A DNA stretch of 64,000 nucleotides from Nemertoderma westbladi. Its lineage: Eukaryota; Animalia; Xenacoelomorpha. The DNA is taken from positions 8-64,007 of the forward strand of contig JAUCBJ010001692.1 of assembly GCA_032718475.1 (NCBI GenBank), read 5' to 3'. Numbering within the stretch: the first letter of the stretch is position 1; each line of letters starts with the position of its first letter. A program made the translations under genes and the position numbers. Below the pieces are notes generated by a model. The model did not search any database and was not told the origin of the DNA. It saw only the letters and a program-made list of their open reading frames with translations. This document shows positions 15,601 to 51,754 of this stretch, in pieces.

Positions 15601-17561
15601 TTTGGAATGATTTACCCTTAGAACTTAAAAACTCACTATCTAAAAATGCCCTAGCAAATAAATTAACAAAACGTTTTCTTGATACCTTGTCTTGAAGCTG
15701 GTAAAGATTCCACAAATAAAGTATCCACTTTGCGACTTAGGCATACTGTCCATACTCAAGTTAGACCTATACTGTATTTATCTATGTTTGACCTATATAC
15801 AATAAAACATCTCCAATATATCCAATGTGCAGTATATTCCTGATGGGTCCCACTAGCTAGCAACTGTTTCATAAACATGTTTTTTTACATTCCGAGCACC
15901 TAAATTATCTCCTTTCGAATCTATCGAGTAACACCCCCCCCCCCCCCCCCGCCTCTCCTGATCAGTCCACTAAACCTTTCACAGTCATGCACCAGTGGAA
16001 ACCTATACTAGCTTTGCTACAGCTGACCACTGGCTGCACCCCAACACCCCACGGCTACGGCATATTATCATTAGGCCTATCATATCACCCACATTCATGA
16101 ATAAATACTGATCAACCTTAAACATTTTATGGTGACCTTTGGTGTTGGGTTTTTGCAATATACTGTATAACGATATCGAAAGGCGAACTTCCGAAATTAA
16201 AGGCCCGGGCCTATCCCGGATTGAAAATTGAAATTGAAATTGACCCCCACACCCTTCACATTTGTCTGGAGTAGCTGGTGGGGTGAGGCCGTAACGAAGG
16301 GCTAACCCATCTCTGAACTCGTCGGGACTCAGATCGGTGTGGTCCAGAACTGATGGCTGTGCTGTCAACCACCCCCCGATCTTGTATTTAACTGCACGCT
16401 CGACAGTCCTCCTCCGAGCCACAGGCAGCGATGAGACCACAGACTCCCGTTGCTGTTTATAGGCCTCTTCCTGATGGATGCGACTTTCCTGCAATACACT
16501 TCGGAGGTGTGCAGCATGATTTGCTGTATTTAGAGGGCTTTGGGTGCAGATTGCTTCAGTAACAAGAGCTGACGCGCATACCGAGCCAGTCCGGGCAGGA
16601 CCGACTCTCTTAAGGGGGTCCCGCAGACCAATCCCACCATGGCGTACGGGTAGGAGGGCAAGATCCCTCTCGATGACACTGTGTGCAGTACCAAACAAGG
16701 ACGGGACAAAGTCCTGAATCAGTGCTGTGCGGATGGGGGCAATATCTTCTTCCACTGTTGGGGCAACTCTTAAAAGAAAATCCCATTCAGCTTGCACGCA
16801 CCGGGACATCCCGGTGTGGGCGGCTTGGGGGAAGTCCTTGGCAACCTCTGAAAGTTTTTTGATGCTAGATACCCAGCCCTCTACTTTGCCTGCGACAAAC
16901 TCCCTGCGTGCTGACTCATCCCCAATGAAGCCGCCCAGATAACGGTGGCCTAAAACCACCTGGACCCCACTGGGACCAAACAGCGTTTTGGCTGCCTCTT
17001 CAAGACCGGGTTTAATTATTAGGATGGATTTTGTAGGTTCTGGGTTATACCCTATATGAGGTCCCTGTCTGAGTAGCTCGGTCCACCACTCAAAGACTCC
17101 TGTGAGTGACCCTGCTGAAGAGGAGTCGTCAGCATACCATGATTGGCGTTGTGATGGGGCCGGTGTTGGTAATGTCAGGTTTGTTTGCGGGGTGGTTTGT
17201 TGTGGAGGGTGTGAAGGTTGGGCCAGAACCGGGACTGCACGGAGGTTGCGAATAAGTGGTAGTGTTGCACAGCCATACCCAAGCATAGCCAGAGGATCAC
17301 CCTGGGTGAATCCCTCCTGACTCCAGAGTGGTGCGTCACTGCCTAGCATATAGAGGGCTGCATGGCCGTTATATGCATTATAGAGAAACTTAGATGCCCT
17401 GTGCCAGTATTGCCGACAATTCCAAAGTGCTACTGGGCGACTTATTGCATTAAATGCATTCTTTGCATCAACTAATAGTAGCGCCTCGGTTGAATCTTCT
17501 TCGAATATGGCATTCATCGCATGGACTGCTCCCTCAATACCTGCCTTTGTGCCTGCACATA
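12665..17561 (-). mobile_element. 5'-truncated CRE-clade non-LTR retrotransposon (RT, CCHC, restriction-like endonuclease), split by a LINE
   Basis: RT motifs LLVDAKNAFN, EGFTQGDPL, WYADD, RYLG. CEGCGG/VFTTSHALSCK..RHD rejoins across the insertion. RADL..FDV..KK..Y is an RLE motif. (TAACA)n tail near 12665. Confidence 0.85.
13466..16242 (+). mobile_element. 5'-truncated CR1/L2-group (Crack/Daphne-like) LINE with frameshifted ORF2
   Basis: KPW, NYRPISIL, QHGFR, DLKKAFD, GTPQGAILSP, LFADDT, KFLG; frameshifts near 13980 and 14630-14690; (TTGAAA)n tail; 6-bp TSD ACCCCC (13460-13465, 16243-16248). Confidence 0.9.
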
Positions 17562-18821
17562 GTGTAATAAATAGTTTATTTATCTATAAACATTTAACAT
17601 TTTTTTTTTAAAAATACTAATTATCAGGCTAGCTAGTGATTTTCCAAGTTAGCTACAGTATTGTTCGCGCTTTTAGACCTTTAGCAGTTTAACCTGCCAA
17701 ATTTAGGTGTCTTCTAGGTTATAAATCGACTTTAGCCTATGACAAGTATTTGATACACATAAAACTACATTAGCCGAAGCCAGCCTATGCGCGACCATTC
17801 ACCCACTGGATTTACCCGGGAGACTGGATTCAGAAGCTCTGACCTTATTGCGGTGTAGGCCTACTATATTATTCGATTGATCGTTAATATATAATCTCTG
17901 ACAAATATTATTCACTTTCGGGAAATATTAACAGTTCCTTTAGGACGTGGCGCTCTAAGTATGTAAACAGAATTATGACTTACACTAAACACAACGGGAT
18001 GGCTATTGATTCACGTATAAAGCGCATTCTTTAGGAGATGCTTTGTTATCTATCACACTCATGCACACTACTGCACAATGCTGCACACCGATCTGCCGAC
18101 CTTCACTAATTTTAATCATATATAAGGAGAACAGCCAATGACACATGTAGGGTCTATGAAATAGCATTCAATTCACTCCAAAACCACTATAATGTAAGTC
18201 GCAATTGCTATATGTAACCGGTCTCTCTAACCTTCAGTATATCAAGAAGATTGGGGTTTTCTGATTATTTATCGATATTCTCCAAATATAACAATATTCC
18301 ATCAACTGATACAATTAATAACCGACAGTAAATAGCAGTAAAAATAATGCGGTGTTTGTATGTGACAATATGAGCAGTTTGTGATATGCAGATTTGGTTT
18401 GCCAGTTTTGTTAACAGTTATACGTTTCTATGATCAAAGCCGTTCTAATGTTTGGCTAAAGTCTGAAACACAGAATAATTCCAAAGCCGGTGTTCTGGGC
18501 TTAGAAAGATACACACTGACTGAATTGTGTGAGTTTCTGTATGTGTAAAAGCTTTTGCGTCATTAACCGGTTATTTTCCCTTAAAGTACTCTGTAGTTGG
18601 TTTACCAGGCATAAAAAGGCTGTGTCCTTGCTGTACTGGTGTTTTAGAGGACATAAAAGTCATTTCTTCTGTATTTGTACTTTAGAGGACATAATCCGCA
18701 ATCTCGTGACGCGATAAGCTAGATACTCTTGAAAACAGTGTCGCTACCATGACGACGGCTAACAGCTGATATTGCCACGTCGACATTTCTTTGTTTCTTT
18801 GTTCTCTCGTGGTTCGGTTGA

Positions 18822-18833
18822 CCAATCAGAGCG
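18822..18833 (+). promoter_or_regulatory. Conserved CCAAT (NF-Y-type) box in the LTR U3
   Basis: CCAATCAGAGCG is invariant in LTRs A, B, C and D although the surrounding U3 has diverged. Confidence 0.55.
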
Positions 18834-19714
18834 TTTTTGTCTCTGTGTTGGAGGTATATACAGAACTCAGTAGTTCAGTGTTATGTTTTTTGCCCAGAGC
18901 CTAAGAACATCGGCTTTTGGCACCTCCGTATATCAGCATTCTTTAGCTTTACATTAGTAGGCTTAATTATAGAACGTATATCTGTTATCATACAAATCAA
19001 ACTACTTACAAACCAATTCAATGCTGTTCAGTGTTATTGTTTATATCTTACTAATATTACTGCTTTTGCTGTCGGTTGTTCATTATATTGGTTGATGAAA
19101 TATTATATCGGAATACTGATCAATAGTCAGACACCCCACCTTCTTGATATACTAAAGGTTAGAGAGACCGGTTACAGATAAACGATTGCGACCTATGTTG
19201 AGTGGTTTGAAGTGAATCTAATGCTATTTCATATGCCCAACATAAATTGTCTGTTGCTCTCTTTATACGTGACCAAATTTAGTGAAGGTCGGCAGATTAG
19301 TGTGCAGTATTGTGCAGCATTGTGTATGATTGTAACTGATAACAAAGCATCTCCTAAAGAATGCGCCATATACGTAAATCTATAGCCTTTTCGTTGTTTC
19401 TAGTTTAAGTCATAACTCTGTTTACATATTTAGAGCGCCACGTCCTAAAGGAACTGTTAATATTTCCCGAAAGTGAATAATATTTGTCAGAGATTATATT
19501 ACGATCAGTCGAATAATACGGTAGGCTTACACCATCAATCATTAAGCTCCGAACTCAGTCTCCCGGGTATATCCAACGGGTGAATGATTGCGCATAGACT
19601 GGCTTCGGCTAATGTAGTGTATCAAATACTCGTCATAAGCTAAAGAATATATATCATCCAAAAGACATCCTAATTTGGCAGGTTAAACTGTCAAAGGTCT
19701 TAAAAGCGCAAACA

Positions 19715-19732
19715 ATAACAGATATAGCTTCT
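19715..19732 (+). promoter_or_regulatory. Non-tRNA primer-binding-site position, complementary to the element's own LTR
   Basis: ATAACAGATATA is the exact reverse complement of 18977-18988; no TGG follows the LTR. Confidence 0.65.
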
Positions 19733-19995
19733 GGATTGCGGTGTAAGCAATCTAGTCGAAAGTACCGGTCGACCGGTAACCAGTAGGCCTGACTGCCTGA
19801 TCATCCGGACCGGTACCTACAACAGTACAGGTACAGCAGTATTATTCGATTTGATTATTATATGCCGGTAGGTCTTAATAATTAATCGGGGACGCCTGGT
19901 TTTTATTGGGATTTTACTTAGGCCTATTTCTGTCAGTTTTATTTATTTGTAGGCCAGTATTGAGCAGAAGGCGTGTAAGCCTGCTCAGATTGTGC

Positions 19996-20560
19996 AGATA
20001 ATTTGTAGGCTTGACTGTTGGCAAACTGTTGATTAGGTTTGAACGGATTGCAGTGCATGTAGAGTGTATGTCCGATAAAGAACGGTTAGGAAGTAGGGGC
20101 AGCCATAGCTGTAAGGTAAACCCCCATCTAAAGAATAAGTCGTACTACTGGGTTAGAACGCATACTACTTAACCATTTCGGAGTCTGCATGTCCTGTGGT
20201 TTATTTAGGCTTGATAGTAGTCTGCCATCGTTTAGTCTGTACTTTGTTTGTGTAGTCTGTACGGGTAGCGTATAATTTTATTTAGATAATTTGTAGGCTG
20301 GATAGTTGTCTGGCTGCTGTTGGGTTTGAGGAAATTTCGGTGTGTGTAAAGCATCTGTCCGATAAAGAACGGTTAGGAAGTAGGGGCAGCCATAGCTGTA
20401 AGGTAAACCCCCATTTAAAGAATAAGTCTTACTACTGGGTTAGAACGCATACTACTTAACCATTTCGGAGTCTGCATATACCGTAGTTTGTTTAGGCTTG
20501 ATAGTAGTCTGTCAGTATTTGGTCTGCATTTTGTTTGAGTAGTTTGTACGCGTAGCGTAA
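19996..20560 (+). repeat. About 288-bp tandem duplication in the leader of element A
   Basis: Copies start at 19996 and 20284; the homologous leader of B has a single copy (about 44260-44550). Confidence 0.9.
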
Positions 20561-21903
20561 TATTTATTATTCAGAGTTTATGCTATTATTCGCAACATTC
20601 ATATCCCCAAGTTTATTCCTACAGTAATTGTGTTTGTTATACATACCGTTATAGTTAAACTAACCCCGGTACTACATCAGGGCTGCTCGGCGTAGGTAAA
20701 GACTGGTGATTTTGTGCACCGGTCACTCTGGCAGATACCGTGGTTCTTTTAGCTGTTCAAGTATTTTTAACTACTGATTATTTGTTGTACAAGTACTTGT
20801 ACCTAATTTAGGGTTTAGTGTACAGTGCTTTCCGAAAGCAATTAGTGTATAGGCAGTGTATTTGTGTTGTAAAGTGGTTAATAGGCACGTTGGTTCTGGT
20901 AGACCGCGGTAATTAACTTCTAGGTAGGGACACTCCGTGATACATAACGTAGTACCTATAGCGATACGGTTATAGGTCGTCAGGCGGTGGTATTTTCCTA
21001 TCTGGACAACGCAGTATATTTACTACTACTTATTATTTTCAAATACCGTAGTAACCTGTCCGTTGTAATAACCAGATATTCTAACCCTTTGTTAGGCTGG
21101 TTAGTAGACTTCTTGTAAAATTACCCTAAAAATTTGTATTTGTGTATTTGTAATTAAATTTTTGTGTTTACTTAGAGATTGTAATCTCAACCCGAATTGT
21201 ACGTAATTTGTAGTATTAAGTAACTTAGGTAAATTAGAATTATTTGTTTTAGTGTCTAACAAGTAGCACTCCACTGAGAGCGCACAGCTTATGTGTAGTG
21301 ACTCCCCCAGAAATAATAACATTTATTTCAACATTGACAAAAACCCATTTCAACGGGTATATATATATTATAAATCAACTCAAACGATTTATAAATAGTA
21401 GGCCTGCCATACAACAATTAGGTCTCAATATCAGTTGGACTACTGCTTAAATAACGGTAATAAAGTAAGTTAAAGTAACCAAGTAACCATTAAAATTCAG
21501 AAATTCAATTATTTAAAATAATTGATATACCGGTATTTACAATATGCTTATTACCTTTATTTTCATAAACTTAAGCTGAAATCATACCGGTATTCTGTAA
21601 TTAATTCTAGTTAATAATTATACTTATATATACTATAAGTGTAAACTGCATACCGGTATCCACGATAGGCCTATTATATATTTATATATATTTGTGCTAA
21701 AATTATATACCGGTATTCTGTGAAAAACCTAGTCTGTAATAATACTTATATATACCCTAAGTATACCGGTATTCTAATATTATATATCACGCTACACTGA
21801 GTAGCAGTATCGGTAATTAATTACTAGGCTAGCAGTTAACACTGAATTACTAGACTTGCTTTGACTGTAATATAGCAGTAGGCATTCAACTGTGCAAACA
21901 AAC

Positions 21904-24900
21904 ATGTCTGATACTAAGCAGAACATGTCAGACAGTTTATTAGATGTAACTATCTGCGACTCAGATAAGGGTGTAGAACCGTCTACACCTAAGTTCACCT
22001 CCCACTGTGAGGAAGGTCATCCCTCCAGTAGTAATAACAGAACCGAGGCTGGTCCAACATCGTAGGTCTATCATAGGCACTCGAGCTCAGGTCAAGCGGG
22101 ACCAAGAAGCAGCGGAACAGCAACAACTTGCGAGCCAAGAACTTATTTCTCAGCGGCCCAACAGCTCCAGTAGTGAGGATACTGTAGAGCTGACACCCGA
22201 GCGCGGAGCAAGGATGACGGATGCGGTTTATTCGGATCCCCTTCTCATCCTTCCTGCAGCCGTACTCACTAGGTTATTGATCGCTGTAGAAGAACACCAG
22301 ATCGATTGGGCGAGAAGTAAGCGATCAACTAAAGATAGTTATGAGGGATACACAAGGGAAGAACTGAAGTCTATGGTCGAGTCGCAATGGAACTTCCCCG
22401 GACCCGGACTCCCGTTTGATTTATCAGAAGCTGCCTGGGAAGACATACACCGGATGGGAGTAGCCAAGGAAACCATCGATCCAGCTGTGTGGAAGAGGTC
22501 CGCAGCCGGATACGCACAGGGATTCTTCAGCTCTATGGAGCGAGTAAAAGAACAACTGTTTCAACAACCTCAAGGACCTCAAGAGCAGGGACAACTGCTT
22601 TATCAAGTTAGAGAAAGAATTCTGCAAATTAGGCTAATCTTATCGGCCTTCGAGGAGGCTTCTAAAAGAAGACAAGACACGTCGTTGCAAGTTGCCGTAA
22701 AGACTTGGTTTCAACGGGTGAGTCGCCAGGTTCAAGGAACAGCTCAGTGGAAAGCTCAGCTGGAGGAGCGCTCAACCCATGGAGAATCAACAGACGCTAC
22801 TTTTTCCCAAGTGGAAAGTGAAGCGACGGCAGAGAAACCGCATAAGAGGGATGCCATTGACATCTATCTGTCAGACTATCAACGTTTTTTAGGTGATGAA
22901 GAGTTGAGGAGAAGGTTAGAGGGGCTTAGCCCTAATAGTGAAGGAGCCCAGCGTGTGTTGGACGCAATCGATGTGGATAGGTTAGCTGCGAACCAAGCTA
23001 AATTCAATGAAAGCATCCGCATCGCTAAGGTTCAAGAAGAACAAGTAAAGAAAAAACGTATAGAAGATAGAAAGAAAGCGGCAGAGGCAGCGGCAGAGGC
23101 AAAAGCGGCAGCGGCAGAGGCAAAAGCGGCAGCTGCAGCAGTAGAAGCCGAAAGAAAGGCGGCCGAAGCGGAAAGAAAGGTGGCAGCTGCAGCAGTAGAA
23201 GCCGAAAGAAAGGCGGCCGAAGCGGAAAGAAAAATAGCAGTGGCAGAAGCAGAACGGAGGGCATCTGAAGAGACAACCCAACTAGAGTTGGAAAATCTTC
23301 AAGAGAGACAAGACAACTTTAATAAACAGTTAACAGCTAGTAATATGCAGATGATGAATCGATCTACTCCCAAAAGACAGGGATATACATCATCTGAGGA
23401 AGGCGATACCACCGATACTGAAGGCAAAGGAAATAGATCTCACTTAAGCAGACGTAAAAGAACATTCCAACGTCAGAAATTGCCTGATTTGCCTCCAGCT
23501 GTTAGAAGGCAACTAAATAACACCAACTTAGGTAGTACAGAACCCACAGACCAAATAATTACAATAGAGAGACTCCCTACTATAGTAGATGAGCCTGAAA
23601 TAGTTAGGCCTGTTCCCGAAGCCACCCTTTCGGTCGTAGAGACACCTTTACTCCCTGAACCTACCTCTCAATTCCCGTTGCACAGCACTAAGCTACCTGT
23701 GCCCAGCAGAACAGCCCATGAGACAGTTCATGCCCTGGACTCCGAGCGAAATATTCATGATTTGTCGCCCGTTGTCCCTCGTCCGCCCGCTACAACGTTG
23801 GCGGATCCCGTTTCGGCGGTTGATTGGGTGGACGAGAGACGGCGGGGGATGGACATTCTCCTCGAAAAGATGGAGGAGAATCGAGTACGCTCCTCCCAAC
23901 AGGTCCGAGAGTTAGAAGGGACTGTTCAACAGTTAAAGGGAACCGTAAAGGAAAGTAGGTTAGAGTTGCAAGAAGTACAGCAAAATATCGCGCTAGAACG
24001 TGATAAATTAGTAAATTTACAAAAGGGTATACCACCACCCCTTGTAACAATGTGTCAACCTGTTAGGTCTGAAGTATCTCATGCGCAAGGTGTGGAGCCT
24101 ACACGCATCTATACTGCTAGCGAAGTAGAAACTCCTATAGTGAACCCTATTAAGGGTAATTATAGACCTGTTGATAATGATATTCTCTATAGACCGGATC
24201 ATAATCCGAGAAATTTATATACCGATAACTCGATATTAAATAACACGATGGCCCAAGAAAGTTTTACGCGTCAAATGGCTAGAACCGAAGCCCGGCAAGC
24301 GGTAAAGGTGGGAGAGATCGTCAAGTTCAATGGAGATGAGATGAAATGGTTACCTTTTAATGAATATTACAAAGATAACATACAGAACTCTGTGCTATCT
24401 AATGGAGAGAAACTTAGATTCCTCATCGAGTGCTTGGAAGGATCTCCCAAGTTAATGGCGTTAAAGTTTATTGGACATCCTGACGGATTAAGACAAGTTT
24501 GGGATACACTAAAATCAGGTATGGTAATAGGAATAACATAGCTGGGTATTTGTATGCAAAGTTAGTAGCGCCCCGAAAGTTTATTAGCAGCGGGATTATA
24601 GAGTTTTCCGACGAGATTCAGGAGATCTGTAGACAATTAGATTGGCTAGGTAAGTCTCATGAGTATCAGAGTGCTATGGTTATTAGAGCAGTGGCTTCTA
24701 CTTTACCGAAGGGTGGAGTAGGTACACGCTGGGATAAGAAAGTGTTATATATGATGGAACAACAACGACGAGACCCTACCATGGCTGATCTCATGTCATT
24801 CCTAGATGGAGAAGTGAAATTACAGCTCCTGAAACTGTCCAGAGAGAAGACACCGGAAAACAAGGTAAGTGAAAAACCCGTCGCTAGGAGAAAGGTAACA

Positions 24901-27617
24901 CCAGTGTGTTATACAGATGATGGCGAAAGCCAGACTTCTCAAGGAGAAGATAGCGGGAAAGATACTGACAGATCTTATTACGTAAATAAAATGCCTAAAG
25001 ATCAGGTAAGTAAATTCAAGTCTCGAACAAATGACAGGAGAGAACAGGTAAGAAAAACTCCTACGTCTCCCAAGAGAATTCAGGTGAGAAAGCCCGAAGA
25101 AAAAGCAAGTGTACACAATGTTACTCAGAGTAAAGTAAGTAACATCAAACCGAAATGTGCGCTATGTGATGGGACCCATCGCTTAAATATGTGTGATGAA
25201 TTTCTAAAGAAATCATTAACTGAGAGACGTGAAGTCATGTGGGACAAGCGGTTGTGCTATAATTGCCTCAGACAAGGACACCAACGGCGAACCTGTTACT
25301 CTGACACAAGATGTGCCAAGTGCGGTGCGAAACATCATATCTTGTTGCACACTGAATTCGAGCGAAATAGTCCGAGTCAGGTAAGTGATTCCGAACTACA
25401 TGTCCAATTCAGTGATGTGAACGACACTGATCAATCTAAGATGGAAGGATTCTATACGGACGAGTTCTCCGACGAAAACGAATCCTGTTACATGATAAAT
25501 ACCACAGTGTATCGAGCACTCATTTATGAAAAAGATACAGACATTGACCTCGCTCTAACTACTTCTGATCGACAACCATCTTGGAAAGCGCCAACTTCCA
25601 ATGTAGGGATTAGAGAATTTCCTGTGGTACAGGTAAGGGTCCATGGACCAAAAAGGAGTTATGTAGTGAACGCCCTCCTTGACTCCGGTAGTACAGGAAC
25701 ATTCATCGACAAAGAGCTAGCCGAAGACATATTCGCTGGACAACCCAAGTTCCGAACTAAGCTAAACATGTCAGGAATTATGCAAGTTTGGAAATCCACA
25801 GTAACCGTGGATTATTATGTAGGTGCGTTGTCCGCCCCCCAGGACGAACTAGGAGAACATAGCATAAGGTCAGTGAAAATGGTGGCTATAAAGAACTTCG
25901 CTACTACTCAAGCAGACCTTTATAATTGGGGCGAGGATGAGAGCATCCAACATCTTAAGATACCTCGATTCCAGACAGATTATCCTGGAGTGCAAATACT
26001 CATCGGTCAAAATGCGCATGAAGCGCTCGAGACATTAGAGAAACGACCTGCTCAACCGCAACCTCTACAAGTTTATGCGGGAAGAACTAGAGTAGGTTGG
26101 TACTTTACTGGCCCTTCCCGTAGAACTCTCATGGAAAGATTACCGAAAGACCAGGTATATCAAGCACGAGAATGGGAAGTTGAGAACAGTGAGTTCGACG
26201 ATCCAACTGAGGGAACTCCATACTCCTCAGACAACGACGATATACATCAACTCTTCGATGAGGAGAATGCCATCGATCTCCTTAAGGAAAGCGAGACTTG
26301 GCAAAATCAAGTGAACTTATGTCAACTCCTTCTCCCATCCGAGCGAGACGACTATAACGACGAGCTTAATGACGTCATTGAACGTTATAATGCCAAGACT
26401 CGGGATGAACACGCCGTGAGATTCTTTACTCAAGAGGTCGTAGAGCCCAACTCCTACGATAAGGCCCTATCGGTGGAGGAAGAAAGAGCCAAGCAGATCC
26501 AAGCGACAACTACTCGTTTCTTAAAGATCAAGATAGGTATGAGATCGGACTTCCTTTCCGAAAGCGAGAACCAAAGTTTATTAACAACAGACCTTTGGCG
26601 GAGAAAAGAATTGCTCAACTACATCGACGCCTTACGGCAAATTCTTCAGCTAAAGAAATGTATAAAACACAGTTGAAGAAGTTTATTAGCAAGGGATATG
26701 CGGAGCTAGTACCGGAAGAAACCCCTATAACTGAGAGAACGTATTACTTAACTCACCATTACGTTCCCAAACCCGGTAAACCCCATGAAATACGAGTGGT
26801 GTTTGACGGTTCCGCCCTTTATATGGGCCAATCTCTTAATTCTGAATTGTTACCCGGACCCAACTTACTCCAATCCTTGTTGGGAATACTACTAAGATTA
26901 AGACAATACTCCATTGCTTTCGCCTCAGATATAGAAGGCATGTTCTTACAAGTCAAAGCGCTGGATAGGGATGGAGATAGCCTACGATTTTTGTGGTGGC
27001 CTGAAGGAGACCTCAATAAGAAACCGGTGGAGTACTGGATGACCATCCAAGCTTTTGGGATAATCTCGAGCCCTTCAAACGCCTGTTCCGTGGTACGCAC
27101 CACTGCGGATGACAACCGAGACACCTTCTCTAAAGAAGTGATCGACAATATCAAACGAGACATCTACATGGACGATAATCTGAAGTCCCTTCCATCAGTC
27201 GAAGAAGCCATTGAGGTCGCTAAAGGAACGGTAGAGTGCTTAAAAAGAGGTGGATTTCGATTAACTAAATTCACCAGCAACTCCCGTGAGTTTCTGGAGT
27301 CGATCCTGGTAGAAGATCGAGGAGTAAAAGACCTAGATCTAATAAAGGATGATCTCCCAGAAACTAAGACCCTTGGTTTGAAATGGGACACAGAAAGAGA
27401 CATCCTGTTTTTCCAATTAAAACAGCGAGATAATCCAGTTCGGACTAAACGGATTTGTTTAAGTATCCTGAGCACTTATTTCGATCCATTGGGATTTATT
27501 AGCCCAGTTATATTGATTGCTCGGAGTTTAGTACAACAAATGTGGCTTGAAAACCACTCATGGGACGATCCACTTAAGGGAGAATTATTAAAGAAATGGA
27601 TGAAATGGGAAGATTCT
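21904..27617 (+). pseudogene. gag-pol: Element A gag-PR-RT polyprotein, frameshifted and truncated before RNase H and integrase
   Basis: KFNGDEMKWLPF (DUF1759-like), triple Cys motif CALC..H..C/CYNC..H..C/CAKC..HH..LH, ALLDSGS, YMDD. Frameshifts near 22000, 24510 and 26520; homology to B pol stops at KWEDSL. Confidence 0.9.
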
Positions 27618-29948
27618 CTGTTATTGTGATGTGTTATCTCTCTGATGTGTTATTCGAGGAGGAAAGAATACAACGATATGGAGATGTGGAAACATATACC
27701 ACACAATATTTAAAGTATAAAGACCTGCCTAATGCTAGCGAATGTGCTACCTTGTGGCATCCTGTGGGAATGACAATCGAAAACGCCACTAAAGAGTGGA
27801 ACGAAACTCTTAACGTTATCGAGATGTATGGAGTTGTCACTTACGATAACGAAGGTAGCGTTCCGGTTGGAGAACTTGGAACTACGCGGATGATACACAT
27901 ACGAGGACTCGCTGGTTCTACCCACGTATTTACTCGAGCATGTTCCGACGTTATTGATTATTCTTTTGAAACTCTTACTGAGACACAAAAGAAACTCCGA
28001 CATGGACAATTTGAACTCGCGCAGCGTTACGTCACCGACACCGAGCGCAAGCCGGCCATGGGTATCGATGGATCGATGTTACCCCAACCCGTGCTCGAGA
28101 TGCTGTTTAACGAAGGAATCCTTAAAATCGGCTCAGCTGTTTATGGAGACCTACAGAACGACTTTCGGAATATGGAGAACATTCCATACCCCTTCGTTGA
28201 TACTCAGCTGATTGCTCCTTGGGCAGAAGGCCGAGGTTTCTTCCGCACTATGTATGCCAATACACCCAGCGGAATTACCAAAGTACAACGAACCTCCATC
28301 GGACATCTTGCCTTTCAAGAATACGGATGGAATTTCAAGGTTGGAAATCCTATAAATTACCAACAAGTATACGGAGATCATTATTCTTGTTTATACTTTG
28401 ATGGACCATTGACCGCACCTGGAGCCGTGTATAGCTTTATGAGTGTTCCACTTCGTCCCTCCTTAGCTATATACACGATCTTTGAAAACGCAGCACTTGC
28501 CGGTTGGCTAGCCGATGTGTGCAGTCGTACCATACGCGCCCATCCCTTAATACTTGGAACCAAACTCGCCAAGTTAGATGAACACAATAAATTCATCCGC
28601 TTTGAATGTTTCAGGCGCTTTCTGACTCCGTTCCGTAACGTTGATAGTCAGTTCAAGGACCGCGCTCTGACCAAACTCAGCCTGAGAGACTCAGCGGCGG
28701 AGAAGCTAAACAGCGCGGGATTTGCCCTTTTTCAGGACGTTTGTATACAGAACTTGCACTCATCTGTTATACAAAGACCCCGAATACCCACGGGTTATTC
28801 TGTCGTCGAAGTTCAGACAGTGGGTCCACTTGCGGAGACAGCCGCACCTACCTCAGCTATGCAATTGGAAGACGAACCAATATGCTTAGAAGCTGAAGCG
28901 ATTCAGCCTACAGCGCCCCGGAGCAGCGATAATGACTACATCTTAAGAGTGGTATCAAGGTCCACAATATCTCACCACATACGATTATCGACACGCTAAC
29001 TATGTTTCTCGAAAACGTTGTCGATTATGCGCATCGAGAGACCATTTCACCCCTATGGACTCAGACGTACCCTGCTCCTATTTCCACGAACAACCAATGA
29101 TGGAGATATATTGTGCGTATTGCAGACTTAATAACTCTCATATTTTTGCAGTCTGCCCCCAATTTATGACTCAATGCCACCACTGTCAACTTAAAGGACA
29201 TGCCAGTTATAATTGCCCCTTTAATCACGATTTAGAGAGCGTAGACGAAATGATTACCCTGCGATACATTCGAGCTTGGGAAGCGAACGCGGATTTACAT
29301 TGTGAGTCCCGTCATCGATACTACCCTGGACGCTCTTACGAGGGAGTTTACGCATTCCATCCTTATTTATTAGCGTCTGTGGAACAAAAAACACGCATAC
29401 CGAGTTACGAGCTAATGAAGCGTGTTGGTGAGTGTATTTCCACTAAATTTGTTAGAAGATACCTTAGGAACGTCAATCCTAACGATATTACTTCATACCA
29501 TTTGATCAATTATATCCGTCAAGACCCTGAGTATGGCGATTTATTTATCAACTCGCACCCTGAGTTAAAGGAAGTATCTCGACGGCCCTACGAATATCGA
29601 GCCCGAGAACGCGAGCTGGAAAGAACTATTAAACCAAGGAAGTTTCTCACCACCCCTGGTCCGCCTACCGCCATTACCCAGACAACCCGTCAAGGACCCG
29701 TAGGAGCTGCTGTCCTGAGGCGCGCCCTAAAGGCTGTTAGACCTCGCTCCACGGAAGTTGATATCGATCAACCAGGTACCTCGACCGGCGGATACACCGA
29801 TCGCAATCCGAAACCTTCTGATGCAATTGTATTGCACCCTTCACCCAGGAGTTACAGCCCTCCTAGTAAAGTGGCTCGCCCCAAAGAGAAAAGGACTCTT
29901 ACTAGCCTCAAAAAACTGCGTAAACGCCGTCCGCGTAAGAAAGACTAA
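27618..29948 (+). pseudogene. Element A accessory ORF3 (5'-deleted, one frameshift near 28940): DEDDy 3'-5' exonuclease, 3 CCHC knuckles, basic tail
   Basis: ExoI VVTYDNEG, ExoII LPQPVLEMLFNEGILKIGSAVYGD, FVDTQ, ExoIII-like PLTAPGAVYSFMS; CRLCx4Hx9C, CAYCx5Hx4C, CHHCx4Hx4C; KKLRKRRPRKKD. Confidence 0.75.
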
Positions 29949-31584
29949 CTGTTTAGAGTATTTTTATATTTTAGAAACTGTGATTTGTTATATTTTATAG
30001 ACTTAAATCCCATTTTCTGGGAGCGGTGTAAAAGCTTTTGCGTCATTAACCGGTTATTTTCCCTTAAAGTACTCTGTAGTTGGTTTACCAGGCATAAAAA
30101 GGCTGTGTCCTTGCTGTACTGGTGTTTTAGAGGACATAAAAGTCATTTCTTCTGTATTTGTACTTTAGAGGACATAATCCGCAATCTCGTGACGCGATAA
30201 GCTAGATACTCTTGAAAACAGTGTCGCTACCATGACGACGGCTAACAGCTGATATTGCCACGTCGACATTTCTTTGTTTCTTTGTTCTCTCGTGGTTCGG
30301 TTGACCAATCAGAGCGTTTTTGTCTCTGTGTTGGAGGTATATACAGAACTCAGTAGTTCAGTGTTATGTTTTTTGCCCAGAGCCTAAGAACATCGGCTTT
30401 TGGCACCTCCGTATATCAGCATTCTTTAGCTTTACATTAGTAGGCTTAATTATAGAACGTATATCTGTTATCATACAAATCAAACTACTTACAAACCAAT
30501 TCAATGCTGTTCAGTGTTTTTGTTTATATCTTACTAATATTACTGCTTTTGCTGTCGGTTGTTCATTATATTGGTTGATGAAATATTATATCGGAATACT
30601 GATCAATAGTCAGACACCCCACCTTCTTGATATACTAAAGGTTAGAGAGACCGGTTACAGATAAACGATTGCGACCTATGTTGAGTGGTTTGAAGTGAAT
30701 CTAATGCTATTTCATATGCCCAACATAAATTGTCTGTTGCTCTCTTTATACGTGACCAAATTTAGTGAAGGTCGGCAGATTAGTGTGCAGTATTGTGCAG
30801 CATTGTGTATGATTGTAACTGATAACAAAGCATCTCCTAAAGAATGCGCCATATACGTAAATCTATAGCCTTTTCGTTGTGTCTAGTTTAAGTCATAACT
30901 CTGTTTACATATTTAGAGCGCCACGTCCTAAAGGAACTGTTAATATTTCCCGAAAGTGAATAATATTTGTCAGAGATTATATTACGATCAGTCGAATAAT
31001 ACGGTAGGCTTACACCATCAATCATTAAGCTCCGAACTCAGTCTCCCGGGTATATCCAACGGGTGAATGATTGCGCATAGACTGGCTTCGGCTAATGTAG
31101 TGTATCAAATACTCGTCATAAGCTAAAGAATATATATCATCCAAAAGACATCCTAATTTGGCAGGTTAAACTGTCAAAGGTCTTAAAAGCGCAAACAGTA
31201 TGCACTGTCCAACACAAAATGAAAATCGCTCTGATTGGTTGAGCCGAACAAAGAAAGCCAAAAGCTACACGTCGACATCTCAGCTGATAGATGTCGTCAT
31301 CTGAAATACACTGTATTAAGAGTATTCTGGTGCATTGCGGCATAAAATTGCTAGTTATGTCCGCTAAAGTACACATACAGAAGAAATGGCTTTTTATGTC
31401 CACTAAAACACCTGTACAGTAAGGAAACGGCTTTTTATGTCCGCTAAAACACCTACAGAGTACTTTGCGGGGAAAATAACCAGCTAATTCCGCAAAAGCC
31501 TTTACACCGCTCCCAGAAAATGGGATTTAATTCTATAAAATATAAAAAATCACAGTTTCTAAAATATAAAAATACTCTAAACAG

Positions 31585-33090
31585 TTAGTCTTTCTTGCGC
31601 GGACGGCGTTTACGCAGTTTTTTGAGGCTAGCAAGAGTCCTTTTCTCTTTGGGGCGAGCCACTTTACTAGGAGGGCTATAACTCCTGGGTGAAGGGTGCA
31701 ATACAATTGCATCGGAAGGTTTAGGATTACGGTCGGTGTATCCGCCGGTCGAGGTACCTGGTTGATCGATATCAACCTCAGTGGAACGAGGTCGAACAAC
31801 CTTGAGAGCGCATTTTAAGACAGCAGCTCTTACTGGTGCCTTACGGGTCATTTGCACGAGAGCGGTAGGTGGACCGTGTGTAGTGAGAAATTCCCTCGGT
31901 TTGATGATTCTTTCCAACTCACGTTCTCGGGCTCTATCGGGATCGATATGCTTCTCCTCGAGCTGATTTTCCTCCGCTTGTCGTTGAAAGCATTCGTCCA
32001 AAACTCTTGCAGAAAGTAGAGTCGTCCAAGTTCGAAATCTTCTTAGAGATTCTGGATTTCCTGATCGAACTGAGATAAAGCTAATTCGTTTACCGCTTGG
32101 ACTTGTTGTTGCAATCTCTGAACAATCGTAGGTTCCTTTTCCGATCTTTTTGCCGAATAATGTCTAACGCGTTTCGTTCAACTCTCTCCTCCACCTCGGT
32201 GACAGGTTGTTTCGTGTTAAACGGGGACGATTATACGGTTGAATGGCGATATTAGGTGTCCGCGTCCCAATCCGGCTAGGTAAGATGGGCGAATATTTAG
32301 GGAGCCCACAACCGGAGTGCCACCGACTAACCGTTCGGGTAACACTAGATCTTTGAACAGTGAGTACAGTTCGGGAGGATCCGTGATACTATTAGGATCA
32401 AGAGTCTGAGGTCTTAACTAGGGAATGAGGAGGTCTGACCGAGTATTCCGGAACTCTGATCATAGGTTTATTTAAGGATCGTTTGAATCGAGCGAGCGTA
32501 GGTGATACATCGAACAAGTTTCGCTCGAAACTCCCAGAAATATAGCGAGTAAAACCGTGTTTAAAGCAACGTCTCCGTGGATGTTTATGTCTTTCCGTTT
32601 GTTGGTTGGGTCTTGGGCATTCATCGCAATAATACCAAAGACGCACGTCTTGTAGGGGAAACGCGGGTGATATTTATTCGGTTTTACAATGTTTCTCTCA
32701 AGAATTCCAAATATACGTTGGAGTTACCGCGTTTATCCGGTTCTTTAACGTCTTCTCTTTCGAGTCGATTTCGAATAGAATTTTCGCATTCGATTTTCAG
32801 TTTATCATTCCGACTCCGCTGGGTAGGATATTTAAATAGTACCATTTCCCTTTCGGTGTCGACATAGTCCGTATCGTGTAAATCGATAGGATGGCCAGTA
32901 GTTAAGAAGTCCATATACGTACCATTACGATGCGTATAGCGAGCGGTGAATTTTCTATAGTACAATTCAGGCGTAAGTTGCTTCTGGGACATCGGCGGTT
33001 CGATATAACGACCATCGTCCTCCGTAGTAGTTGGACTAGCGTCGCCGCGTATCAAGCTATCCACAAACGCTTGCAACGGTAGAGTACCCT
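31585..33090 (-). pseudogene. Element B accessory ORF3 remnants (N-terminal part fused by deletion to the C-terminal tail)
   Basis: 31585-31935 closely matches the A ORF3 C-terminus (RARERELER..RPRKKD). The upstream broken ORFs at 32000-33076 have no counterpart in A. Confidence 0.7.
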
Positions 33091-34823
33091 GATACCAAGA
33101 TCATCTTCTATCAACTCAGTCATATCTGCTATATGAGTTTATCAATATTATAATTAGTTATAATTAGGCTAGCGGGCGTCGCTGCCTACCCCTCACGGCC
33201 CCCGGACAGTGTAAGATCCTCAGCGCTGATGTACTGTCGCCGCTGTGCCTATCGCCAACATAGTAGCTGCACAACGACAACAACGACCAGCGCGAGTCAT
33301 CCACTGTCCGTCCCAAAGGCTTAGATTTACTTCAGGTTCTTACTGCAGAGTTAGGGCTACTTTAACAATTGCGACTCGCTACTGTAAACACACTTTAGTA
33401 GTAACATTCACCTATAAACGCACAAATTCCACACAACTGTCACAAACCGCACACATTCGGGCCATTTGTCCGTTAGTCAAGTGCCTTCCAGAATGCCACG
33501 TTATTATTGGGTATCCTTGGATACTAGCAGTGTGCTATTATTCCTTATGCTATTCAATGGGCAAGCTTTATTGTTCTTTTAACTCACTTCTAATTCTAGC
33601 GTGGTTGTTGCCATGGTGACATTATGGAAAGCTAGCCGTAGAATTAGGGTAATTCTCATGCATACAGATCTGGGATGCTATTTAATAGTAATTCTTTAAT
33701 TGTCAATATTCCTCTTTATACATGATTTTATGAATTTTATCGGCTATTGACTATATATTGGAGATTCTCGCACACTAATACACTTAATAGGGTGAATCTC
33801 CGCTCCCATGATCTATTAATTAATGGAATTTTGGGAATGTTACAAATTGTATAAAAATGACAATTTATCAAATTCATTAAAAGATATGAATTTAAATTTA
33901 TTCCCGTAAATTTTATTATTTAATATTAAATAGACACAATTTTATTCCAGAGCATGTCTGGGGACTAGGATCCTGAATTCTAGGAAATTTGTCCTTTTAA
34001 GAGTATCGGTAGGTGCTACGATATCTTAATAGACTAGAATTTTAAAGGATCTAAAATTTTATAGATTTTAATTTATAGAATTTCTAGAGTTAACTTGTAA
34101 GTAGTTACTCTATTGTATCTATTTGACAGATTTTATAAATATTAATAGTTAATATTTAAGATGGGCACCGGTTTATTCCAGAACTTGTCTGGGGACGTTA
34201 ACCACTGATTCTAGAATTTTGTCTTTCAAGTATATCGGTGGGTGCCGTGATATCTTAATCGACTAGAATTACAGATGGTCAAAGGGTTTAACAGATTTAT
34301 TTTGCGTTTTACGCTACTGTTAAAGGGACATCACGCTACTATATGTATTATTTAATATACGGTATGAGAGCAATATCGCAAGAAGCAATGTCAGTGAGAA
34401 GAGGCAAGTCGTTTCCAAGGTCTACCCAGAGCTTGGTTTAGCCGAGACACGAGGATCTGAATTTTGCATTCCTAATACTCTACTTACCAATAATACTTGA
34501 ATATAGTAGGAGCTTTATTGTACTTTAATAAGTACGGACATTTCATCTTACTATAGTCACGTATTTATAATATGATACGGACAGTAAGGAAAGAGAAAAA
34601 TAATTATTTCTCGCCGTCGCACTAAATATATAATATATAAGTAATTAAGTAATAAACACTAATATATATTGCACTAATCTACTAAATAATCGCTAAAATA
34701 ACATTCTACTAAATAAAATTAAAGAAAACGATTAGAATAAAATTACATAATAATACATACATAAATATAAAATAATAAGAACAAATATAAAATAATATAG
34801 TCACACACCCACTCCAGACGCTG

Positions 34824-37800
34824 TTACGTTGGGGAGTCCCTAGATGTTTGTTGGATTAGGGAGGTGGTCGTGGGAAGATTATCTTGCCTTCCATAGTTTC
34901 CGGAGAGTTCTCTGTCTCTTTCCAGTAAACATAAACGACCAACTGGGCGATTGAGTTGCTGTGTCTCGAAGACAATTCCCGGTTTCTTAAAGTTACGTCG
35001 CATGACGACGAGTTCTACCGATCGCACTAAACCGTCATCCGAGATATGAGTCTCGATGATACGACCTGTCTGCCACCGCTTACGTGGAAGATCTGAATCC
35101 ACAATAAGGACCATGTCTCCGGCGCTGACGTTTTCTTGCTGCGCAAACCACTTAGTTCGAAGTTGTAGCGTGGGCAGATAATGTTTTTCGAAGTGGTCAG
35201 CGAAACGACGGGATAACAACTGCATAAGTTGCCAAGTTTGCCGACAGTATTCGTCTCCGTCCGTGATTTCCGATCGTGGGAGCATGGCTACAGGTTTCTT
35301 CAGTAGGAAGTGCACGGGTGTTAGCGCTTCCAGGGAATCGGGACTCGATGAGACTGGCATAAGCGGTCTCTCATTGAGATAGGCGGCTATTTCCTCCATT
35401 AACGTCCGCAAAAGTTCGTCGGTGAGATACACGCGGCACGGCACTATAAAGTGAAATGCGGTCTTCACGCTTCTGATTAATCTCTCCCAACTTCCTCCCC
35501 ACAAAGGGGCGTCGGCGGTGTTGAAGGTCCAGCTAGATGCTGTTACCCTTAGCTGATCGTCCACCTGTCTTTGGTTCCAATCTTTGACGTAAGCCTTGAT
35601 TTCATTGTTGGCACCAATGAAGTTCGTTCCCTTATCAGATCTCATCGTGTTACTAGTTCCAAAGCGAGCGATCTGTCGGCGTAAGCTCAATATGAAGCTA
35701 TTGGTAGACAAATCGTTCACCATATCGAGATGGATAGCTCTACAAGTCATACAGACAAAGATGACACACCATCTCTTGCCTATAGTCCTAGCACGATATA
35801 CTTCAATAGGGCTAAATAAATCCACACCGGTATTAGTAAAGGGTGGTTCATAGAAGCTTACTCGTTCCCTAGGTAATTCTGCCTCTCGCTGTGTTAAAGG
35901 CCTACTGAATGCTTTCCTACAGGGTATGCAGTTCCTAAGAACTTGGTTCAGAGCTCTACGGGGTTTATGAAAATAATAGCGAGTTCGAATTTCGCTAACA
36001 ACTCGTTCTCTACCAGCATGATAAAGCTTACTGTGAACATCTACAATCATCTTGATTTGTATTTCAAGATTTCTAATGAGTATGGGAAACTTAGTTTCAA
36101 AGGATAATGGAGCATTAGTTAGTCTTCCTCCAACACGTATTAACCCATCTATCATTGTGCTAGAGAAACGATCCCTTAAGCGCATCTGTGGATTTCTCAA
36201 CAACGGGAAATACTTATCGGAATCCTCATAGCATTGCAAGAGTCTCAGTATCTGCTTATTGGTTTCTTCATGCTCCTGGTAACTGATCTTCTCCTTCAGA
36301 AACCTGTCGGATATCTTGTATTTGGGAAGATCTTTAACAACATGGACCTGCGCAGATGTCAGTGGAGCGGTATCACTAGTGGTCTTCGTCCTGGAGTAGT
36401 GATGATGAAAACATCGCTTTAAATATGTAACGGCCTTACAGAGCCAATTCCAGGAACTATAGTGATGTATCGCTCTCTGTAGGAGGGGTGAGAGTCCTTG
36501 CGAGACATCTGGTATTCCAGATTTCCAATCTCTCTCCCTGATTTCCACAACAGACTTATTTGTGGCTGCGGGTTTCGGATCCAAAGCGTCGTCTCCGGAA
36601 GTGTGTAGTACAGACAGATCTACCACGGGTTTAAATAACTTCGATTTACTCGCCCGAGTTTTAGGTTTGACTTTCTCCGCTCCCTTGGCCTGTCTAATCT
36701 CCGCCGTAGTAAGATGAGGAGGCCATTCATCCTCTTCTTTGCTTAGGAAGTCGGGTCCACCTAACCAGTCTGGAGTATCTATCAGTTCTTGTGGAGTTGC
36801 TCCCCTGGAGGCGATGTCGGCTGGATTAATCGTTCCGGGGCAATGTCTCCATTGATCTATCTTCGTGCGACTAAGTATAATGGCTACTCTGTTGGTAACG
36901 AAGACGCTGAACTGACAGTCTTCATTGGTTATATACTCCAACACGAGTAAAGCATCGGTCCAATAGATAGTTTTCTCCAGTGGATAGTCGATCTGTTCTG
37001 TTACATTCCGGCCGATGGCTGTAGCGTATAGAGCCGCTTTTAACTCCGCTCAAGGAACTTTCAACTAGTTGTTTATCAAGGCCTTAGAGGTAACCAAGGC
37101 GACCTTGATTCCATCCAGAGTTTCAACTCTCAGGTAGGCTACTATACCTATTCCCATATCGCTGGCGTCTCCAAACACATGGAGTTGATAGGAATACGTA
37201 GGGAGAACATGACCAAAATATGAACGGGAAATTATAAAGTTCTCGATTGATGGTAGAGAATCTTCCCATTTCATCCACTTCTTTAATAGTTCTCCCTTAA
37301 GTGGATCGTCCCATGAGTGGTTTTCAAGCCACATTTGTTGTACTAAACTCCGAGCAATCAATATAACAGGGCTAATAAATCCCAATGGATCGAAATAAGT
37401 GCTCAGGATACTTAGACAAATCCGTTTAGTCCAAACTGGATTATCTCGCTGTTTTAGCTGGAAAAACAGGATATCTCTCTCTGTGTCCCATTTCAAACCA
37501 AGTGTCTTGGTTTCTGGAAGATCGTCTTTGATTAGGTCTAGATCTTTAACTCCTCGATCTTCTACCGGGATCGATTCCAGAAACTCACGGGAGTTGCTGG
37601 TGAATTTAGTTAATCGAAATCCACCTCTTTTCAAGCACTCTACCGTTCCTTTGGCGACATCAATGGCTTCTTTCACTGATGGGAGGGACTTTAAATTGTC
37701 GTCCATGTATATATCCCGTTTGATGTTGTCGATCACCTCTTTAGAGAAGGCGTCCCGGTTGTCATCAGCAGTGGTGCGCACTACTGAGCAGGCGTTTGAA

Positions 37801-39260: not shown

Positions 39261-42200
39261 TCAGATTCCTACGTTGGAAGTTGGTGCTTTCCAAGATGGT
39301 TGTCGTTCAGGAGTAGTTAGGGGGAGCTCATTGTCAGTTTCCTTCTCATACGTAAGTGCTCGATACACTGCGGTATTTATTAGGTAACAGGATTCGTTTT
39401 CGTCGGAGAATTCGTCCGTATAGAATCCTTCCATCTCAGAACTTTGGTCAGTGTCGTTCACATCACTGAATTGGACATGTAGTTCGGACTCACTTACCTG
39501 ACTAGGGCTGTTTCTTTCGAATTCAGTGTGCAACAAGATATGATGTTTCGCGCCGCACTTTGCACACCTTGCGTCGGAGTAACAGGTTCGCCGTTGGTGT
39601 CCTTGTCTGAGGCAATTATAACACAACCGCTTATCCCACATGACTTCACGTCTATCTTTTAGTAACTTCTTTAAAAATTCATCACACGTACTTAAACGGT
39701 GGGGCCCGTCACACAGCGCACATTTTGGTTTGATGTTACTTACCTTACTTTGAGTAACGTTGTGCACACTCGTTCTTTCCTCGGGCTTTCTTACATGAAT
39801 TCTCTTAGGAGACGTAGGAGGAGTTTTTCTTACCTGTTCTCTCCTGTCATTGGTTCAAGACTTGAATTTACTTACGTCTTTAGGCACTTTGTTGACATAG
39901 TAAGATCTTTCAGTGTCTTTCCCGCTGTCCTCTTCTTGAGAAGCCTGGCTTTCGCCGTCGTCGGTATAACACACTGGTGTTACCTTTCTCCTAGAAACGG
40001 GTTTCTCACTTACCTTATTTTCTGGTGTCTTCTCTCTGGACTGCTTTAGGAGCTGTAATTTTACCTCTCCATCTAAGAATGACATGAGATCAGCCATGGT
40101 AGGGTCTCTTCGTTGTTGTTCCATCATATATAAGACTTTTTCTTGTCCCAGCGTGTACCTACTCCACCCTTTGGTAAAGTAGAGGCCACGGCTCCAATAA
40201 CCATAGAACTCTGATATTCATGGGACTTACCTAGCCAATCTAATTGTCTACAGATCTCCTGAATCTCATCGGAAAACTCTATAATCCCGCTGCTAATGAA
40301 CTTTCGGGGCGCTACCAATTTTGCATACAAATACCTAGCTATGTTATTCCTATTACCATACCTGATGTTTAGTGTATCCCAAACTTGTCTTAATCCATCT
40401 GGATGTCCAATAAACTTTAACGCCATTAACTTGGGAGATCCTTCCAAGCACTCAATGAGGAATCTAAGTTTCTCTCCATTAGATAGCACAGAGTTCTGTA
40501 TGTTATCTTTATAATATTCATTAAAAGGTAACCATTTCATCTCATCTCCATTGAACTTAACGATCTCTCCCACCTTTACCGCTTGACGGGCTTCGGTTCT
40601 AGCCATTTGACGCGTAAAACTTTCTTGGGCCATCGTGTTATTTAATATCGAGTTATCGGTATAATAAATTTCTCGGATTATGATCAGGTCTATATGGAAT
40701 ATCATTGTCAACAGGTTTATAATTACCCTTAATAGTTTCTACTTCACTAGCAGTATAGATGCGTGTAGGCTCCACACCTTGCGCATGAAATACTTCAGAC
40801 CTAACAGGTTGACACATTGTTACAGGGGGTGATGGTATACCCTTTTGTATATTTACTAATTTATCGCGTTCTAACGCGATACTCTGCTGCACTTCTTGCA
40901 ACTCTAACCTGCCCTCTCTGACTGTTCCCTTTAAGTGCTGAACAGTCCCTTCCATCTCCCGGACCTGCTGAGAGGAACACAAACGGTGTTCCCTCAGCTG
41001 CCCGAGCAGGAGACCCATCTCCCGCCATCCCTCATCCACCCACTCTACCGCCGAAGCGGGAGCCGCCAACATAGTAGCGGGTAGACGAGGGACAATGGGC
41101 GACAAATCGTCGATATTTCGCTCGGAGTCCAGGACAGGAACTGTCTCAGGGGCGGTTCTGTTGGGCACAGGTAGTTTAGTGCTGTGCAAAGGGAATTTAG
41201 AGGTAGGTTCTGGGAGTACAGGTGTCTCTATCACCGAAGGGGTGGCTTCGAGAACAGGCCTAATTATTTCAGGCTCATCTACTATTGTAGGGAGTCTTTC
41301 TATTCTAATAATTTGGTCTGTGGGTTCTGTACTACCTAAGTCTGTGCTAGCTAGTTGCCTTCTAACAGCTGGGGGCAAATCAGGCAATTTCTGACGGTGG
41401 GACATTCTTCTACGCCTGCTTAGACGAGATCTATTTCCTCCGCCTTCAAGATCGGCGGTATCGCCTTCATCAGATGATGTAAATCCCTGTCTTTTGGGAG
41501 TAGATCGACTCATCATCTGCATTTGACTAGCTGTTAACTGTTTATTGAAGTTGTCTTGCTTCTCCTGAAGATTTTCCAACTCTAGTTGGGTTGTCTCTTC
41601 AGATGCCCTCCGTTCTGCTTCTGCCACTGCCGCTTTTCTTTCCACTTCGGCCGCTTTTCTTTCCACTTCGACCGCCTTTCTTTCCGCTTCTGCCGCTGCC
41701 ACTGCCGCCTTTCTTTCCGCTTCTGCCGCTGCCACTGCCGCCTTTCTTTCCACTTCGGCCGCTTTTCTTTCCACTTCGACCGCCTTTCTTTCAGCTTCTG
41801 CCTCTGCCGCTGCCGCTGCTGCTGTCTTTCTATCTTCTATACGTTTTTTCTTCACTTGTTCTTCTTGAACCCTAGCGATGCGGATGCTTTCATCAAATTT
41901 AGCTTGGTTCGCAGCTAACATTTCCGCATCTATTGCGTCCAACACAAACTTGGCTCCTTCACTATTAGGACGAAGTCCAGCCAGCCTTCTCCTCAACTCT
42001 TCGTCACCTAGAAATCGTTGATAGTCTGACAGATAGATGTCTATAGCGTCCTTCTTCTGCGGTTTCTCTGCTGTCGCTTCGCTTTCCACTTGAGAAAAGG
42101 TAGCGTCTGTTGATTCTCCGTGGGTTGAGCGCTCAGCCAGCTGAAAATTCCACTGGGCCGTTCCTTGAACCTTGAGACTCACCCGCTGGAACCAAGTCTT

Positions 42201-51570: not shown

Positions 51571-51754
51571 TGATAGTTAAATAACGTACTTAACGGTTGA
51601 CGAACGAGTACAGTGATTTTATAAAGATTGACAGGCTAACTGGTAGTAATCTTATATCATCGCTTCCGCTTGGGATGCTTGGGTGTACTTTGCATAAATA
51701 GTCGTTTCCTCTTCCTCACAGGCGTTTGGGGCGCGGGTAACGTCATGTCATTGC

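Follow-up and report, generated by a model that had tools for sequence, protein, structure and literature searches.

In this study, we found that a BEL/Pao retrotransposon in a 64,000-nucleotide stretch of the Nemertoderma westbladi genome (contig JAUCBJ010001692.1 of assembly GCA_032718475.1, positions 8 to 64,007 of the forward strand; hereafter the window) carries an accessory gene, ORF3, between pol and the 3' LTR. ORF3 is a real, constrained, multi-copy gene, and the copy in this element is defective. With some reserve, we read it as a broken third gene whose intact copies would encode a predicted exonuclease of the RNase D type, with CCHC knuckles and then a basic tail behind it. The fusion of an exonuclease with zinc knuckles in the 3' accessory slot, proposed in a preliminary description of this DNA, is supported by an independent homolog, P0003, in which the same fusion occurs.

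The window is AT-rich (31-50% GC in 2-kb windows) and packed with retroelements. The exonuclease/knuckle interval lies within element 1 (18544-31197, 12,654 bases), which is bounded by two LTRs of 1171 bases each on the plus strand (18544-19714 and 30027-31197) with TG...CA ends. The GTATG target-site duplication stands directly upstream of the 5' LTR and directly after the 3' LTR, which is preceded by a short purine run (30019-30026). Because the LTRs differ at only 2 of 1171 positions and GTATG is kept at both flanks, the insertion of element 1 is young. Gag, with knuckles, and protease occupy two plus-strand frames (21977-24541 and 24484-26676; Asp_protease_2 E 0.0019), and these are followed by the reverse transcriptase (RT) and only the beginning of the Pao RNase H region (26463-27629, plus strand; Peptidase_A17 profile positions 1-58 of 162, E 1.7e-14), with a stop within the deletion junction described below. 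The Pfam aspartic protease together with the Pao-specific Peptidase_A17 identifies element 1 as BEL/Pao.

A minus-strand sibling, element 2, is 88% identical to element 1 over gag-RT, and element 1 is inserted in its 3' LTR, the nesting pieces of which are found at 17659-18543 and 31198-31507. The pol of both elements is of the Pao type with PR-RT-RH-IN order; Peptidase_A17 is present in both, whereas integrase and DUF5641 are found in element 2 only (34824-37049, minus strand, with the RNase H end; Integrase_H2C2 E 2.7e-7, DUF5641 E 1.6e-20), the RNase H end and integrase having been lost from element 1. Since element 1 has no integrase and split gag/pol frames, yet near-identical LTRs, its most likely history is either copying in trans by intact siblings or damage sustained after insertion. 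The 2.26 kb between its 5' LTR and gag frame (19715-21976) is unusually long, is kept in element 2, and in element 1 includes a tandem duplication of ~290 bases (19996-20575). Both Gag proteins have a tandem repeat rich in Ala, Glu, Arg, and Lys, of unequal length in the two elements (23050-23300 and 41590-41840), for which a coiled coil is predicted by composition. The 5' LTR of element 2 (44824-45896 and 47956-48093) is interrupted by ~2 kb that include a 22-base tandem repeat at 47347-47709. No Rfam match was obtained for 17500-46500.

Although the interval 27618-29948 had been described as a single accessory ORF in the place of env, it is split between frame A (27578-28999) and frame B (28947-29948), and its apparent start is a deletion scar; its position in the 3' slot after pol holds. 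From 27643 to 28999 (plus strand), frame A comprises a linker and, ahead of it, the DEDDy/RNase D-like exonuclease domain (about 27830-28520). It overlaps frame B at 28947-28999 (plus strand), and the reading frame of element 1 is broken nearby. The deletion junction (27620-27653, plus strand) contains a direct repeat of 11 bases, with copies at 27627 and 27643, and the in-frame ATG at 27629 sits inside it. Because the identity of pol to element 2 ends at 27619, and contigs of other copies turn to different sequence before 27643 (X4, one contig) and before 27650 (X2, two contigs), the start of ORF3 is this junction and the true 5' end of the gene is absent from element 1; a start at 27618 or 27629 was rejected for the same reason. 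Among contigs from four runs, none spans integrase to exonuclease, and no copy with both was seen. At the ~28,950 break, contigs differing in length were found in all four runs (4, 3, 1, and 1 contigs, from at most three samples), and one contig of 287 letters joins the linker to the first knuckle across it. The frame break is not family-wide, and in element 1 it may be a genuine mutation or an assembly error. An env-like third gene was also considered and rejected, because neither frame contains a hydrophobic segment that might form a transmembrane anchor or signal (highest 19-residue hydropathy 1.19 in frame A and 0.59 in frame B).

When 27200-30020 was divided into 30 bins, contigs from all four runs were found to cover every bin and to represent many divergent copies. 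Copy differences were classed from 40 of 472 rows listed; with 6 RT rows and the 1 row at the break set aside, 33 remained, of which 21 are silent and 20 fall on third codon positions, more than the one third expected (p 0.0012). The exonuclease domain contributes only eight of the classed rows, five of them silent. In the RT of elements 1 and 2, 85 silent and 15 replacement codons were counted among 367. The C-terminal tail that ORF3 has in common with element 2 (29596-29948, plus strand) shows a weaker bias, yet a bias, with 24 silent and 13 replacement codons among 117.

The similarity of frame A to RNase D-type DEDDy nucleases appears weak yet consistent, and convincing only in aggregate. 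As a reference set we used 13 bacterial RNase D/Pol I-type domains, namely E. coli rnd and 12 of the 30 plasmid matches listed. When an HMM of this set was run against 235 targets, P0003 ranked first (13.2 bits) and frame A second (10.0), and the next ORF of the window reached 2.4. None of 500 shuffles of either frame A or P0003 reached the real score (best shuffle of frame A, 2.7). Profile-profile comparison by hhalign gave 91.5% and E 8.6e-7 over 59 columns around ExoII, and profile support is confined to this region. NCBIfam gave just two matches for frame A, each to RNase D (E 0.015 and 0.035), and in the Atlas the nearest named clusters are of PF01612 (0.87-0.90), behind an unnamed fungal cluster. 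Pfam gave no match for frame A. No match to frame A was obtained by sequence search of the PDB, and word-based searches with frame A and with a two-sequence profile (the latter against proteins of 122-447 residues) returned no new homolog; in a profile search with the two sequences, RNase D appeared only at E 1.1, ranked under an unrelated ankyrin. AlphaFold2 models had mean pLDDT of 32.7 and 28.4. With the first of these low-pLDDT models, Foldseek gave no match at E 0.001 and VIA-align gave generic sheet matches only (best Z 6.4), results that speak neither for nor against the fold. Phage tblastn gave E values of 6-10 only, the PHROGs search nothing meaningful, and locus scans of viral contigs and metagenomes no confirmed relative. 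Taken together, the sequence comparisons make it very probable that the frame A domain has the DEDD fold.

P0003 was the sole match among 1.84 billion representatives (E 1.7e-4). It is an ENA protein encoded by one ORF of 648 aa on a contig of 9,449 bases, and this single ORF contains an exonuclease, an extended charged linker, and three knuckles of the CCHC type. Frame A is 30% identical to it over 150 aa, and the knuckles of frame B are 30% identical to it over 43 aa (E 5e-5). The Atlas cluster nearest to P0003, an exonuclease with CCHC from Euglenozoa (0.86), can be taken as a lead only, and a word-based search with P0003 returned only P0003 itself.

The DEDDy-type motifs noted in the preliminary description are present in frame A, in the order given there. 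The ExoI D-x-E (D-N-E, Asp90/Glu92) lies at 27845-27853 (plus strand), and GVVTYDNE is the best 8-mer match to ExoI of P0003 among frame A residues 1-170 (18, next 9); the strand pair after ExoI is likewise the best match to that of P0003. Automatic aligners fail to pair the two ExoI motifs, being misled by an insertion of ~30 residues before the ExoII helix. Frame A has the LPQPVLEMLFNEGILKIG motif at 28079-28132, and the ExoII Asp191 at 28148-28150 (plus strand), in whose codon the one listed copy difference is silent, is followed by FVDTQ at 28193-28207.

At ExoIII, frame A has two similar motifs of identical spacing, 14 codons apart. The preliminary description had chosen PLT...Y at 28406-28444 (plus strand), which ends in Ser (AGT, 28442), and had taken this Ser to stand in the place of the last catalytic Asp. 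This is probably a register error, as the alignment with P0003 points to PLRPSLAIYTIFE at 28448-28486 (plus strand; PL-x6-Y-x3-E, with Tyr at 28472 and Glu at 28484), and P0003 also has Glu. ExoIII of P0003 scored 36 with 8 of 24 identities when forced on the Glu motif, versus 3 with 4 of 24 on the Ser motif, and both BLAST and pairwise MAFFT of frame A and P0003 choose the Glu motif. Furthermore, three Pro residues occur in the 19 residues after the Ser motif, compared with 0-1 in the reference rows (one of the 13 matched off register), so the Ser motif is probably not the catalytic helix. The bacterial references lean in the opposite direction: RNase D blocks gave 3.6 for the Ser motif and 0.8 for the Glu motif, both weak, and a multiple MAFFT alignment picks the Ser motif. 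We prefer the Glu register because P0003 is a nearer relative than the bacterial references and hence a better guide, and, given this weak opposite leaning, consider the Glu-28484 register likely, not proven. The idea that this copy in particular has exchanged its catalytic Asp for Ser was accordingly rejected, and no copy differences were found in either candidate ExoIII codon among the 40 of 472 rows listed.

In neither register is Y-x3-D present: the likely register reads Y-x3-E, as does P0003, and the one chosen earlier reads Y-x3-S, whereas all 13 references have Asp. Frame A was therefore filed as a DEDDy-like variant, and we think it probable from the alignments that the active site is D-E-D-E with the Tyr kept. 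With Glu or Ser, never Asp, at the last acidic position, exonuclease activity may be lost. Our literature search found no evident report of a DEDDy variant with Glu in the fourth place.

Frame B contains three knuckles (29019-29216, plus strand), separated from the exonuclease by a linker of ~160 codons. All three described earlier are present, and only one is canonical: CX2CX4HX9C at 29019-29075 is degenerate, CX2CX5HX4C at 29112-29156 is near-canonical, and CX2CX4HX4C at 29175-29216 is canonical. The Pfam zf-CCHC_3 match on the knuckles (E 0.013) is below the cut-off. The tail shared with element 2 closes with a basic run at 29910-29945, in agreement with the NLS-like tail noted previously.

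In element 2, the integrase is followed by an AT-rich spacer (29.5% GC), a decayed stretch of ~1.75 kb, and the shared tail, which is 87% identical to that of element 1 over 103 residues. Neither the exonuclease nor the knuckles have a recognisable counterpart in this accessory slot (31585-33700, minus strand), which shows where ORF3 would stand behind a complete pol. The decayed stretch (31936-33700, minus strand) is coding-like with 43-45% GC, its longest open piece (32684-33100, 138 aa) has no Pfam match, and it may represent another accessory module. Element 3 still carries pieces of the linker and tail of ORF3 (52619-52876, minus strand; 66 aa at 47% identity, E 1.4e-9). Element 3 (50402-54154, minus strand) is more distant and internally deleted, with an LTR about 75-78% identical and a 416-aa frame without clear Pfam family. 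In the simplest reading of these sequence relationships, ORF3 would be older than the subfamilies of elements 1-3, and element 2 would have replaced or lost its front part. Siblings have different modules before one common tail, and the accessory slot may thus be swappable. Elsewhere in the window, a frameshifted LINE-type reverse transcriptase (13314-15695, plus strand; Pfam RVT_1) lies between 12893-13465 and 16003-17583 (both minus strand; no Pfam match), which, with their YADD motif and Cys knuckle, resemble pieces of another non-LTR element. A 683-aa open frame at 2156-4207 (plus strand) contains Gln-rich repeats of 8-10 residues and has no Pfam match, and a 152-base piece of it is found again in inverted orientation at 54950-55101 (94%).

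In the explanation that we favour, unbroken copies of this BEL/Pao third gene, broken in element 1, likely make one protein comprising a predicted RNase D-type 3'-5' exonuclease, the knuckles, and the tail. By analogy with TbRND, the trypanosome mitochondrial RNase D discussed below, the knuckles would grip single-stranded RNA while the exonuclease trims the RNA 3' end, and the basic tail would import the protein to the nucleus. RNA processing by the ORF3 protein is thus plausible, and we lean slightly towards two-metal exonuclease activity. Its putative targets can be named only tentatively: the 3' ends of small silencing RNAs of the host (piRNA/siRNA) are a possible target, which we rank slightly above another doubtful one, the RNA or cDNA ends of the element itself. 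The most specific version, in which BEL/Pao elements carry a TbRND-like, knuckle-guided D-E-D-E exoribonuclease that trims or destroys host piRNAs, in a swappable cassette sharing a nuclear-targeting tail, and so would give an animal LTR element an anti-silencing enzyme of the kind suggested in the preliminary description, is unlikely as a whole.

The same gene and fold could alternatively encode an adaptor, catalytically dead or weak like EXD1 and Maelstrom, that binds element RNA for export, localisation, or packaging. EXD1 and Maelstrom are DEDD derivatives that have no activity but still bind RNA (PMC5408684), and in ORF3 the last catalytic position is not Asp in either register and is Glu in P0003. 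Three knuckles and a basic tail would also fit a role in an RNP. On the other hand, frame A and P0003, at ~30% identity, both keep the ExoI Asp/Glu, the ExoII Asp, and the ExoIII Tyr, and the fourth position is acidic. Dead enzymes usually lose such catalytic residues, and we regard the adaptor as a possible but less probable reading than a candidate exonuclease.

A role on DNA, that is, trimming of cDNA 3' ends or proofreading for RT in the manner of WRN/Pol I-type domains, is improbable. PF01612 does include DNA exonucleases, the nearest Atlas clusters include exonucleases of large DNA viruses, and the DEDDy domain of Dada transposons has been proposed to act on DNA 3' ends (PMC3706591); however, ORF3 is a separate 3' gene outside pol, its family matches are RNase D, the CCHC knuckles of TbRND bind RNA (PMC7797062), and element 2 has integrase without exonuclease. 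We consider it still more improbable that a host or foreign gene fragment was captured once at the deletion junction and has no role for the element. The exonuclease indeed begins right at the scar and is absent from element 2. Against a single capture, many divergent copies in all four runs span the whole stretch with mostly silent differences, the more distant element 3 retains remnants of linker and tail, and ORF3 continues into a tail that also occurs in element 2 and shows coding constraint of its own. A candidate RNA exonuclease remains our preferred reading, and the conserved Glu in the fourth place makes its enzymatic activity a sharp question.

Juno and Vesta of bdelloid rotifers are gypsy-like elements. 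Like them, element 1 has, behind a pol that is truncated in this copy and in the place of env, a gene for a predicted RNase D-like DEDDy protein, and DEDDy ORF3s are also found in Athena/Terminons, their activity being "yet to be demonstrated" (PMC5408684). Reviews repeat these rotifer cases (PMC5718144, PMC6431247, PMC6338049). The earlier suggestion that exonuclease ORFs occur in LTR elements of rotifers and nematodes is therefore borne out for rotifers, whereas none was found for nematodes in the literature searched. The resemblance extends to family-specific presence, the lack of a transmembrane segment, and an altered acidic motif, although this is written DEED in rotifers and is probably D-E-D-E here, the two being likened by their published description (PMC5408684). 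Unlike Juno and Vesta, the host here is BEL/Pao, and neither BEL nor nematodes are mentioned in the available part of PMC5408684. Also, ORF3 has three CCHC knuckles and a basic tail, whereas the same part of that study describes only a Cys-His-Cys motif in two rotifer ORFs. The rotifer study left the role of DEDDy third genes open (PMC5408684), and a second LTR superfamily with such a gene and TbRND-like knuckles suggests repeated capture under selection.

The ICTV profile of Belpaoviridae names no genes other than gag, pol, and env-like ones and gives a length of 4.2-10 kb (PMC8742986). Element 1 resembles them in its LTRs, Pao-type pol, and a third gene in the 3' slot, but this gene is not env-like, and the element measures 12,654 bases even without integrase. 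We found no report of a BEL/Pao exonuclease gene, nor of an exonuclease-plus-CCHC third gene for BEL/Pao, in the literature searched, which took in few subscription papers and no repeat databases. The word "exonuclease" has 0 occurrences in the main text of the BEL/Pao survey PMC3118150, and the available parts of PMC13269885, PMC11662393, and PMC11599104 contain no BEL/Pao exonuclease gene. Capture of a DEDDy exonuclease, as proposed here, has occurred repeatedly in mobile elements and viruses: Dada DNA transposons have a DEDDy domain within the transposase, and closteroviruses a small stand-alone WRN-class DEDDy gene (PMC3706591, PMC8297929). A knuckle-fused third gene is not described for either in the available text of these papers.

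A known parallel in domain arrangement, missed in the preliminary description, is TbRND of trypanosomes, in which an RNase D domain is likewise followed by tandem CCHC fingers, four in number, that bind U-rich RNA and feed its 3' end to a two-cation site (PMC7797062). TbRND is a cellular, mitochondrial protein whose linker has 28 residues and whose DEDD site is complete (PMC7797062), whereas ORF3 belongs to a mobile element and has three knuckles (one degenerate), a linker of ~160 codons, and Glu in the fourth place. Given the difference in linker length, the coupling of exonuclease and knuckles may differ between the two. TbRND structures were not among the PDB sequence matches, and convergence is as likely as orthology. 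In summary, DEDDy ORF3s as such were already known, and what is new here is the BEL/Pao host, the three knuckles, the probable D-E-D-E site, and the shared tail. As TbRND is structurally solved, the same arrangement in ORF3 gives an assayable hypothesis, knuckle-guided trimming of RNA 3' ends.
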